DNA from: Okamejei kenojei | Taxonomy: Eukaryota | Length of the DNA stretch: 64,000 bases | NCBI GenBank assembly: GCA_035221665.1 | Contig: CM069164.1 | Coordinates: 26,970,001-27,034,000, forward strand | Reading direction: 5' to 3' | In this document: piece by piece, positions 8,001 through 18,080 of the stretch | Numbering within the stretch: position 1 is the stretch's first letter | Layout: each line of letters opens with the position of its first letter | Made by a program: the position numbers and the translations under genes | The notes under the pieces: generated by a model | What the model was told of the DNA's origin: nothing | Seen by the model: only the letters and a program-made list of their open reading frames with translations | Databases searched by the model: none

Positions 8001-9273
8001 CACCTTCAAACTAAGCAGTGGTCATATTATCAACAATTAAACCCAGTGTTCCATATTAACGATAAGATTTATATTCAATATACTTTAAATTGTTCCTCTT
8101 CGTTTGACAATTTCATCCTCTGAACACACCAATATTAGTTTTTAAAAGCACCGTGCTGTCCGTATATGCTATAGGTATATAATAATGTCCAGCAGAAATG
8201 GCTATGTGATGGGTGGCTTGAGATATCTATTGTGCCATTGGAAGTGGCTGTGTGGAAAAGTGGTGGAGCGGCTAATACTGGCAAGATTTGGAAGTGCACA
8301 TGTACTTAATGGTTTAATTGCAACCCCAGAATACGGAGGGTGAGCCGCAATCAGGCCAGAAATGTTGCACAAGATTTTTCTCTTGAAAGAGCGTCTATGT
8401 GTCCATTGAAGGGCGCTGATCCGAAAAGACAGAGGGGACAAATAAAAATCGATCTGAAGCGACCCTGGCCGTCCTTTTCACACGACTCACACACAATCCC
8501 CTCTCAACTCGGCCAAGACAAAGGCCTGGGGCTGGAAGGATTCTCCACCAGCTACAGATACCCTTTTGGAAAACACGGAGATAATTTTACACTGGACACA
8601 AACCATCACCAGATCTCGTCAAATCTCAAATAATTATTTACTCTTCTGCAAGCCGTTGATGGGGTAGGGCGGGGTGTTAAAATTTTTGGGAGAATGGCTC
8701 ATTTTTATACCCCGAGTCTGAAACAACTTCATAGGAGAAACATAGCAGGAATAAATTAACTTTGACATAAAGTTCACTAAACTCCAGAAACCACACAAAT
8801 CAGCCACTATAGGCGACGGGTAGAGGGGGGGGGGGGGGGGGGGGGGGGGGGTGATTAGGGTGTTGATGGTAATTTAATGTTTTTTATTCCCTCCTCTCCT
8901 TGCCTTATTGAAATAGTCGCAGCGTATTTCTTGTTTTTAACTGAGACATGTACGTTTGGCCTTCCATCACCTTCAACCCCCCCCACCCCCCCTTCACCCT
9001 CCCCACACCCAACCCACCACCCCCCCCCCCCCCAAAAAAAAAGACCATATATTGGAAACTTTTACAACCCCGAACTGACCAGAGCAAAGGAGCGAATTTG
9101 CGCAGGAGATTGGTATTAGTGGCTCGGGGGTTTAAAAGGCGCGCATCGCATTCCACTGCACTTTTCCGCAGTTCAGCGATTATCGATAGGCCCATAAAGT
9201 TTAAACGTAAAGACTGAGCGAAAGTTAAATTGCAAATCGAAAGTACTTCCCTGCATTTTCTGAATATTTATAT

Positions 9274-9276
<3 letters not shown>

Positions 9277-9314
<38 letters not shown>

Positions 9315-9320
9315 TCTCTC
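9277..9320. repeat. (TC)n microsatellite
   Basis: Direct observation. Confidence 0.95.
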
Positions 9321-9556
9321 GCCAAAGGCAACCTTGTTTTTATTTATCAGTTTACACTATCGGTCGTGCAAACAGATGACGGTCGATTAAATGAATGATT
9401 CTCTTCAATAGGCAAATTGATCAGGTGAGGAGGAGACTAGCCCTCCTTCAGTTCACCTGCCAGAAAAAACAAGATTCATCTCACTCAGTACTTTCCAACG
9501 CGGTTCCGCCAAGATTCACAACTTCCTGTGTCCAGCGCAGTCTCCAATCCTTCACG

Positions 9557-9608
9557 ATGCAAATAATTTCGGACACTGAACAAAGACAGTTGCAAGCAAT
9601 GATGTTTG
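9557..9608 (+). CDS. NR2F2: Candidate alternative first coding exon of a DBD-less NR2F2 isoform (MQIISDTEQRQLQAMMF)
   Basis: ATG in acgATG context; TTTG|GTATGT donor in phase 1, compatible with exon 2; aligns with the recalled human isoform b N-terminus MQAVWDLEQGKYGF. Confidence 0.7.
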
Positions 9609-12600
9609 GTATGTTTTTTTAATAAATATATATGTACTTTTGTTTACTTAATCGAGGGGGGAATACGCTTTTCTTGCTCAAAAACATTATCGTTCTTAAA
9701 CACCTGTGTTAATTAATCTATATTATTTTGACACGAAGCAGGTTTTGAATTTCGACCCATACTTGTAATCTGTGGCCTATTGAATATCAGTTAAAACAAT
9801 TAAAGTTTTGCTTTAATTATTTCTAGGTGTAATGGCAAAAAATCATTAAATCAAGGTCGGGTTCTCTTTCTGACTATTTTGATAATCCAACGCTCCGTTC
9901 TTATGCTCCGGGTAGTTTAGTTAATATACGTGTTTCCAAATGGATAGCACCGGTCGGAGATCCAATTGAACAGTGAATGGGTTACAGTGCCGCACGACAG
10001 TGTAATATTGGGAAATATGCAAAATAACCGGCAGAAATAAGCATACTCGCCAACCCCGAAATAAACCAAGGGGTTGGAATCTTTCTAAACCCGGCTCCAG
10101 TCGTTTACGCAAAAATCCAGCGCCTCTAACCCCGTGTTTCAATGAATTAGATTTGTTTTTCAATCATTGCTAAATTGCTGTGTAATAGTGGTTTGATTTA
10201 CAACGTTGAATATCGCCAGCGAGCTCATTAAAAACAACTTTTCTCTCAATATAAGAAATAAGAACTGAATCGTCGCAATATCTATCAAGTAAAACGTTGC
10301 TACAATCAACAGATTTAATTTGAACTGTGTATTAGAAATTGGTACTCACCGTTTTAATCTAGATCCAGATACTCATCTGATGATTTTTGTGTGGGAAATG
10401 TATATTTATTTATTTGAGGGGCGAAGGAGCCGGCATCATTTTGGCTTGGCTTTACTGTTTTAGATGAACCGTTTTTAGAAGGGGGAAAAAAGTCAATTAG
10501 CAATCGGTTGTTTTGGGAATAAGACCAATTCCTGGCACTTAAGTCAACCCAAGCGTAGAGGCAGATCTACACAAAACAAAGCGACGGAGATCACGCAGAC
10601 CCGCTCAGCAACGTCCGAATCAATTAGAGAAAAATCCTAAAGAATTAATCATATTAAAGGTGCAGAAGTTTTTTTTCGGGGTATAAAGGACGTGTTGTGA
10701 GCGAGGAGGCGCCGCGATCGCTTTGAATGGCTGTTCAGCTCCGGACTTCTATAGCGACACTCCATACGCTAGGTGGCAGCCGGATACTGTACAAGATTTT
10801 GACAAATTCTCCAGCATATGCTGCGATTTAACACTGTAAATTTTTCAGAAGCCCGCTGCACTGACAGCTCCCGGCGGTTATCAAAGTGCCACAAGTCACC
10901 GCTTAAAAACTGCAATGACTTTGAGATCACCGGGACACAATGGGAGCCACTTTTCCCCTATTCATTGTGTTGAGATGTAGAGAGAGAGGGCGAGGGAGGG
11001 TGGGAGAGGGGGAGAGAGCAAGAGAGAGGGGGGGATAGGGTGAATTCACAGGGAACTCAAATTCAATAGATTTAGCTGGTTATCAGAGAACAACTGGACA
11101 ATAAGTGGTATCTAGTTCGTGGTAGAAATAGGTTTCAATAAATATGCCACAGTTGGCATGCAACACAATATTAATTTACCAAAATCCTGTACACCTTCAT
11201 CCCTTAGAAACTATTTAAACTCCACTGATTAGTTTCTGATTGTCTCTTTAGTTTGGTGTCGGAACAACTCAAACTTACTTTTGACAGTATAATATAAAGT
11301 GTATCCTTACTGTCTTATTAAAAATACTAAATCACGATTCAATTTTATACCAGAAAACGTGTTTCAAACTTTTGCCTGCACCTCTTAAATGAGCGCTTAG
11401 CAACACGCATCCTTGGCTGGATAACGTTGATACGCTGGAGTTTAATTACTAACAAAATATCTTAATTTCCTATTTCCCCAAACTAACCGCCCAGTGCACT
11501 CCAGTCTATCAACTATCTGCTCAAATTAAATTAATAATTTTGCCAGGCCGATGAAGTTAAAACCACGCGTACATGTTCCTGTAAGTTGCAACATATATGG
11601 TGTCGGACCGCTTAACGGGAGGGTTTGTGTTCGTGTCTTTACCGACCCAAGTCTTTACCGACCAAACATTTTATCACACGCCAGTATTCGCTGGGAGGCT
11701 ACAGTGGTTACTGTACCCACATATTATGTGCATTCGGGTAGATATGTGATAGATGAGGAGAGGAGAGAAGAAAATTGTACCTCCCTCCAAGTAACGGTAT
11801 TTAACATTCTACCCATTGGACTTCAAAGTAAACACCTGTTTAATGCAATGTCCCCATGTGTGTGCGTTATATCCTTGGACGGGTATAATTTCTTATTTTA
11901 TACATTAACCGCGTAACAATGCGAGAGCATCGACAGGGGTGAGAATTTCTGAATATTCTCGGTAATACATACGATGATATCAATTTTGAACGGAAATATC
12001 AAGGGTAAAGGATGCATCTGACATGTGTTTTAAAGTGTGTGTGTATTAAATTGTATACTTTTTTTTAAATTAAAGTACCGTGAAATGTGAACATACAATT
12101 GGGCGCGAGCGGATTCTTGATAGCACCGAGCGTCCGACAATAATGTATTTTCCTTCATACATACCAATTCAATTACATGCAGTTATTTAGTATACTATAT
12201 AATTTTTCGGGAAGTATTAATTGCTGCATTAAAATATTGCTTATAAGACGACTGGACTCTCCAAAAACCATTGCATTTACGTGAATTTGAATATTCCTCA
12301 CGAGAATATTAGTCAATTCTGCTAGTTCATTCGAGTTAACTCTAGTTGCATTGCCAAGAGAGTAGCCCTATTTGTCCAGGATGACCACTGTACCTAATGT
12401 GACATCAATGAGAATGTCTATTTTTCCCCAAAATAAACACATGATACATTAAAATCCATTAATATTGGGAGACTAGGAAGAAAATCATATCGGAACAACT
12501 CAATTCTGAAGCATCGTCCGTCTTCCTTGTAGTTTCGGGCGTGTTGATGTATAACCACATTTCCTCATGTCTATATCAGTCTTCCTATATGTTACAATGC

Positions 12601-14556: not shown

Positions 14557-14968
14557 ATGGCAATGGTAGTTAGTACGTGGCGAGACCCGCAAGACGACGT
14601 GGCCGGAGCTCAAGTCACACAGCCACCTCCGCCTCAGCAAGGACCGCAACAGCCTTCTGGAGCACCCCTTACCCCGCAGACCCCCGGCCAACCTGGAGGT
14701 CCGGGCACGCCGGCCCAGTCTAACCAGCAGCAGAGTGAGAAGCAGCAGCAGCATATCGAGTGTGTGGTGTGCGGGGACAAGTCGAGCGGCAAACATTACG
14801 GCCAGTTCACCTGCGAGGGCTGCAAGAGTTTCTTTAAAAGAAGTGTGCGCAGAAACTTGACGTACACATGTCGTGCCAACAGGACCTGCCCCATAGACCA
14901 ACACCACCGCAATCAGTGTCAGTACTGTCGCCTGAAAAAATGCCTGAAAGTCGGCATGAGACGGGAAG
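14557..14968 (+). CDS. NR2F2: NR2F2/COUP-TFII coding exon 1 (N-terminus and C4 zinc-finger DNA-binding domain)
   Basis: [15 protein letters not shown]...[33 protein letters not shown]...[17 protein letters not shown]; phase-1 donor GAAG|GTATTG at 14968/14969. Confidence 0.97.

Positions 14969-15729: not shown

Positions 15730-16341
<612 letters not shown>

Positions 16342-17753: not shown

Positions 17754-18080
<327 letters not shown>

Follow-up and report, generated by a model that had tools for sequence, protein, structure and literature searches.

Our analysis of a 64,000-nucleotide stretch of the genome of the skate Okamejei kenojei, referred to here as the window, points to a small exon at positions 9557 to 9608 of the forward strand as the skate equivalent of a known exon of NR2F2, the alternative first exon that lies upstream of the main one and belongs to the transcript called variant 2, Iso2 or V2, and we place the probability of this reading at roughly 70%. 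The short isoform that it would open has no DNA-binding domain (DBD) and a complete ligand-binding domain (LBD), as judged from Pfam matches by exon and from alignment with the human LBD structure 3CJW. An earlier note on this DNA had presented the exon as hidden, which it is not, as its junction is already contained in the NCBI models of the thorny skate and the whale shark. Orthology of the skate exon with that of NR2F2 isoform 2 is nevertheless probable, and the evidence for it combines the anatomy of the exon, its presence in these two models and the likeness of its peptide to an amniote leader.

The gene itself, which encodes a regulator of development, is, as had been proposed, the NR2F2 (COUP-TFII) of a cartilaginous fish, and more precisely of a skate, as indicated by a protein tree and by an identity of 337 of 338 residues with Amblyraja radiata. 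The coding part of canonical exon 1 (14557 to 14968, forward strand) carries the A/B region and both zinc fingers, ends in a phase-1 donor and is skipped in the short isoform; shared exon 2 (15779 to 16306, forward strand), with an internal Met at 15796, encodes the hinge and the first part of the LBD, and the coding part of shared exon 3 (17806 to 18080, forward strand) encodes the remainder of the LBD to the stop. Splicing these three coding exons yields a full-length protein of 404 aa, in which the Pfam domain zf-C4 falls entirely within exon 1 (E 4.7e-32) and Hormone_recep within exons 2 and 3, and the LBD is identical to that of human 3CJW at 235 of 242 positions counted from the alignment. 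The tree comprised 13 proteins with a midpoint root, namely that of the window and 12 named full-length relatives (5 NR2F2 and 7 NR2F1, with no NR2F5 or NR2F6 rows), and in it the protein of the window pairs with the NR2F2 of the electric ray Narcine (96/92) inside a six-row NR2F2 set (100/99), not with NR2F1. Among 12 open reading frames of at least 120 aa in the 64-kb window no other gene is convincing, and Rfam gave 0 matches over the same stretch, which contains nine N gaps, two of them within the main 5' region.

Several further features of the shared exons deserve mention in their own right. An alternative acceptor, with its AG ending at 15757, would extend exon 2 in frame by 21 nt (15758 to 15778, forward strand) and so place 7 additional residues directly behind the zinc fingers. 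The insert is identical in the Narcine model, similar inserts of 6–7 residues occur in models of Sceloporus, Anolis and Polyodon, and this type of insert is present in 4 of 12 full-length NR2F2 rows; from these alignments it seems to be conserved among jawed vertebrates at large, and it could alter DNA binding. At 15776–15781 lies a tandem CAGCAG acceptor whose second AG would remove the junction Ala, a residue that is missing in a Rhincodon NR2F1 model. In the second zinc finger (14866–14890), in what we take to be the D-box region, the skate has Thr for Asn ahead of the second cysteine of finger 2, where the compared Narcine, lizard, bat and frog proteins have Asn. Two substitutions in the exon-2 part of the LBD, Ala to Gly and Ser to Ala (near 16062 and 16117), are common to Amblyraja and are found neither in the whale shark nor in human 3CJW.

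The proposed micro-exon holds up as described: its 52 nt comprise 17 codons plus one nucleotide, the translation matches, and it ends TTG|GTATGT. Its join to exon 2 is in phase 1 and in frame, and costs the protein both zinc fingers while leaving the LBD intact; exon 2 begins at 15779 after a CAG, and the split codon, G plus CA, gives Ala at the junction. In this short reading (9557 to 9608, forward strand) the ATG has an A at −3 and the amniote peptide of variant-2 type begins in register with the 17-codon segment; the product from ATG 9557 would be 284 aa long, with the frame open to the exon-3 stop at 18080. As in NR2F2 variant 2, the exon precedes canonical exon 1, and the expected distance of about 5 kb is accurate, the main ATG at 14557 being 4,949 nt past the donor. 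That donor, GTATGT (9609 to 9614, forward strand), opens a 6,170-nt intron spanning canonical exon 1 and is used at the same junction in both NCBI models; it matches U1 at 7 of 11 positions, which ranks it second of 53 GT sites in 9100–10100 and above the main exon-1 donor (6 of 11). A slightly better GT consensus occurs at 9424/9425, and a (TC)22 tract followed by AG (9277–9328) is a possible splice acceptor that would make the alternative exon internal. With 48 phase-1 candidates of the form ATG..GT, 10–25 codons long, ahead of exon 2, such anatomy alone cannot count as evidence, and this exon rises above chance because NCBI models of two other species join the same exon to exon 2.

The reading frame of the exon extends further upstream than the earlier note had recognized. 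It stays open for 54 codons before 9557 to an ATG at 9395, with an in-frame stop directly before it at 9392, and this long reading (9395 to 9608, forward strand; 71 codons plus one nucleotide) gives a 338-aa product from an ATG in weak context (T at −3). A search with the 71-aa frame returned two proteins among 20 candidates, the Amblyraja isoform X4 (99%) and the Rhincodon isoform X3 (75%). The former, a COUP-TF2-like protein of Amblyraja radiata (338 aa), has the same exon and junction without a DBD and accounts for the near-complete identity with the skate long form cited above; over the exon part 70 of 71 residues are identical. The latter, a COUP-TF2 of Rhincodon typus (339 aa), likewise joins the same exon to exon 2 without a DBD, and between skate and whale shark the last 17 residues of the exon agree at 15 of 17 positions and the last 45 at 37 (82%). 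Both are automatic models whose names are not tied to human Iso2, and the fact that these predicted transcripts, one from a skate and one from a shark, agree is what speaks most strongly for use of the junction. They differ from the short reading in their start, as both begin at ATG 9395, so that the claimed 17-residue beginning does not stand, and neither does the claimed conservation of its ATG: Met 9557 is kept in Amblyraja and replaced by Thr in Rhincodon, an outcome that the earlier note had named as speaking against its proposal and that is seen in one of two other chondrichthyans.

The Kozak rule holds that the context at −3 weighs on start-codon use, and a purine occupies that place at ATG 9557 and at two further in-frame ATGs, 9599 and 9602, from which products of 270 or 269 aa would follow. 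Given the weak context of ATG 9395 and two short out-of-frame ORFs (9376 and 9391) that overlap or precede it, leaky scanning to these later ATGs is likely by the same rule. Skate and whale shark have the initial 14 residues encoded from ATG 9395 in common; then, from about codon 15 to about codon 25, a compensated frameshift puts the two species in different frames before they rejoin. When the skate is read in the shifted frame, 8 of 10 residues over this stretch match the whale shark, so that DNA is kept where protein differs; part of the conservation here is at the level of DNA, and the extension upstream of 9557 is, on this comparison, probably not a functional peptide. A profile-free search of 1.84 billion representatives with the 71-aa ORF returned only two low-identity, multi-stretch matches, both of which we dismissed as compositional noise.

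The same frameshifted stretch lends weight to the main rival reading, which we regard as unlikely, in which the exon is real and ancient but has been conserved as regulatory DNA or for the sake of transcription itself, the peptide being incidental. The exon would then serve as a promoter, as a 5' leader, through interference with the main promoter or as part of a promoter shared with an antisense RNA, and any protein would begin at a Met just before the donor or within exon 2. Consistent with such a view, all eight substitutions between skate and whale shark in the last 45 codons are reachable by a single base change, the loss of Met 9557 included (for which a one-step change, reasoned back from the whale shark protein, leaves ACG as the only possible codon), and humans also produce N-terminally shorter forms from exon 2 (PMC7016888). 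Against it, both skate and whale shark return to the frame that connects 9395 with the donor, for which chance would give 1 in 3, the phase of the donor is kept, the identity with a cobra protein described below starts exactly at an ATG, and human and mouse isoform b are given as 100% matched (PMC5785710).

Homology of the skate exon with the amniote variant-2 exon is supported by peptide likeness, reached through a stand-in. The human isoform b leader presumably reads as the earlier note gives it, and we used stand-in comparisons in its place, chiefly the N-terminus of an NR2F2 model of the cobra Naja naja (UniRef A0A8C6VR15), which agrees with the leader so given at 10 of 14 places by eye. 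Like the skate form, the cobra protein lacks a DBD, and its first nine residues are identical to those of the skate 9557 peptide at six positions without gaps. This 9-mer pair has a BLOSUM62 score of 25, the highest among 1369 ATG-started 9-mers on both strands of the window and the highest among the 48 phase-1 micro-exon candidates, the next best of which scores 10; a score of this size is expected by chance at 7.9e-5 per ATG, or 3e-4 over the four ATGs of the exon. Across the whole window 0.11 such 9-mers are expected, so the match is strong only given that NCBI had independently chosen the same exon. It weakens past residue 9 (score 22 over 14), where the 14-residue boundary of the cobra leader is itself a deduced one, and the cobra model, a single automatic one, is unlike the skate form in carrying 34 further residues ahead of exon 2 and a different C-terminus. 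An alignment of the two leaders by MAFFT came out misaligned and was not used for searching.

Comparison with human sequence, as far as primers and lengths permit, bears out one part of the likeness that had been claimed and not the other. A published human variant-2 primer, reverse-complemented, spells F-A-V-Q-R over the junction, so that the F|A boundary common to human and skate stands; of the five bases on its exon side, four agree with the alternative exon of the skate and one with exon 1. Alignment without gaps as far as the junction does not stand, as human isoform b is 281 aa long (PMC5785710) and, after subtraction of the 267 shared residues, its first exon would encode 14 residues, against 17 in the skate. 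With a human 5'-UTR primer nothing distinctive turned up in the window; the best near the exon is 15 of 24, and at least seven better ones lie elsewhere.

These limits also give some room to the possibility that elasmobranchs and amniotes gained their upstream exons independently and that the peptide likeness is due to chance, since an LBD-only product would follow from any phase-1 donor that precedes exon 2, and 48 candidates for it exist. The match is limited to nine residues, with the window-wide expectation given above, and no intermediate lineage was found among the homologue matches. Yet only one candidate has a spliced NCBI model in two species, and the cobra match falls on that very candidate (3e-4), which also precedes the main promoter, as the human exon does, and ends in F plus G like the human junction; together these points make independent gain highly improbable in our view.

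A survey of DBD-less models, covering 33 named rows among the homologue matches and excluding unnamed and full-length rows, places these proteins in a broader setting. Eleven are named NR2F2 models with a leader, of which three carry the alternative exon type and eight have unrelated leaders; none of the eleven carries this exon type in a chimaera, a ray-finned fish or an amphibian. Clustering at 90% hides forms of the 281-aa kind (281–284 aa) inside larger clusters, and missing lineages in the survey therefore say little. The eight DBD-less NR2F1 models show two recurring leader types, one of which heads a 144-member cluster; the leader of this cluster ends in a W..(K)SY-like stretch and has a local score of 20 against the cobra, where unrelated leaders reach 22. 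We considered the 'MFGY' leader of NR2F1 models as a paralogue of the alternative exon and rejected it, as it follows exon-1-derived sequence in an owl model and looks like an intron-1 cassette. That the skate exon is mere annotation noise, rare or mis-modelled splicing without a biological product, is scarcely credible, for although NCBI generated its 'isoform X' entries automatically and eight of the eleven comparable models have unrelated, junk-like leaders, the same exon and junction recur in skate and shark, where 45 residues are 82% identical.

If the exon is indeed the counterpart of the Iso2 exon, a second, upstream promoter some 5 kb before the main ATG would drive the alternative transcript, whose phase-1 donor at 9608 would be spliced past exon 1 onto exon 2. 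A motif scan by consensus match gives a weak candidate for its core in an inverted CCAAT (9109–9113) and a TATA-like TTTAAAA (9131–9137) (together 9109 to 9137, forward strand), which may place the start site near 9160. No CpG-island signal marks the alternative exon, the CpG observed/expected ratio over 9001–9500 being 0.79 against a median of 0.76 over 113 segments of the window; the ratio is high throughout the 64 kb, which would fit a gene desert with little methylation around a developmental gene. Ribosomes would largely bypass the weak ATG 9395 and initiate at 9557 or at 9599/9602, so that the conserved product would be a short leader plus the whole LBD, with a flexible exact start. By analogy with mammals, this LBD-only product, unable to bind DNA, would pair through its LBD with full-length COUP-TFII and raise or lower its activity according to cell context, and it is in this sense that the skate short form may be a modulator.

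Homology with the amniote exon would mean that the exon probably existed before the lineages of jawed vertebrates diverged. One may go further and suppose that a two-promoter switch between full receptor and LBD-only form dates back to the ancestor of all jawed vertebrates, and perhaps to a time before the duplication that produced NR2F1 and NR2F2, with selection keeping the donor phase and the LBD-only product while the start codon moves, the whale shark possibly using a near-cognate ACG; we hold this extended scenario to be quite doubtful.

The exon itself is already in NCBI annotation, and its explicit link to Iso2 and its dating may be unpublished. The literature covered, which comprised few supplements and neither figures nor two primary papers that may discuss conservation (Yamazaki 2013; Rosa and Brivanlou 2011), contains no statement of the isoform in fishes, and no paper with the junction motif came up in it. 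As a class, DBD-less COUP-TFII isoforms are known in human and mouse (PMC7016888, PMC5785710), where reviews treat them mostly in the context of cancer and stem cells (PMC7016888), and one paper asks whether the DBD-less isoform is a new gene (PMC8997336). An article on Nr2f evolution covers the conserved phase-1 introns, and the word 'isoform' does not occur in its accessible text (PMC8608329); the accessible parts of two other articles add nothing on fish isoforms (PMC7486121, PMC5997157). An early origin of the isoform would favour a normal developmental role, for example in the neural crest, a site of human Iso2 expression (PMC10073109). While the skate exon reveals no new mechanism and is of modest evolutionary interest, a true orthologue in skate and shark would mean that the isoform predates the split between cartilaginous and bony fishes. 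That split took place about 420–450 million years ago, and an isoform of such age would invite exon-specific knockouts in fish.

The system with which the skate exon is best compared is variant 2 of human and mouse NR2F2 (NM_001145155; isoform b, Iso2 or COUP-TFII_V2, 281 aa), which shares with it an exon upstream of the main promoter, a phase-1 F|A join to exon 2, the absence of a DBD and a whole LBD. In human the first exon of V2 lies upstream of the V1 promoter and the variant-2 product is partly cytosolic (PMC8997336), while Iso2 is described as arising from an upstream start site switched by CpG methylation, as expressed in ES and neural crest cells, and as co-precipitating with Iso1 and moving its binding up or down (PMC10073109). 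The skate form differs from variant 2 in its leader, of 17 codons (71 from ATG 9395) against 14, and in its start codon, which is uncertain and lost in the whale shark. Human variants 3 and 4 (isoform c) resemble the skate form in being LBD-only and have the equivalent of the exon-2 Met at 15796; unlike it, they start within exon 2 and have no exon-encoded leader (PMC7016888, PMC5785710).
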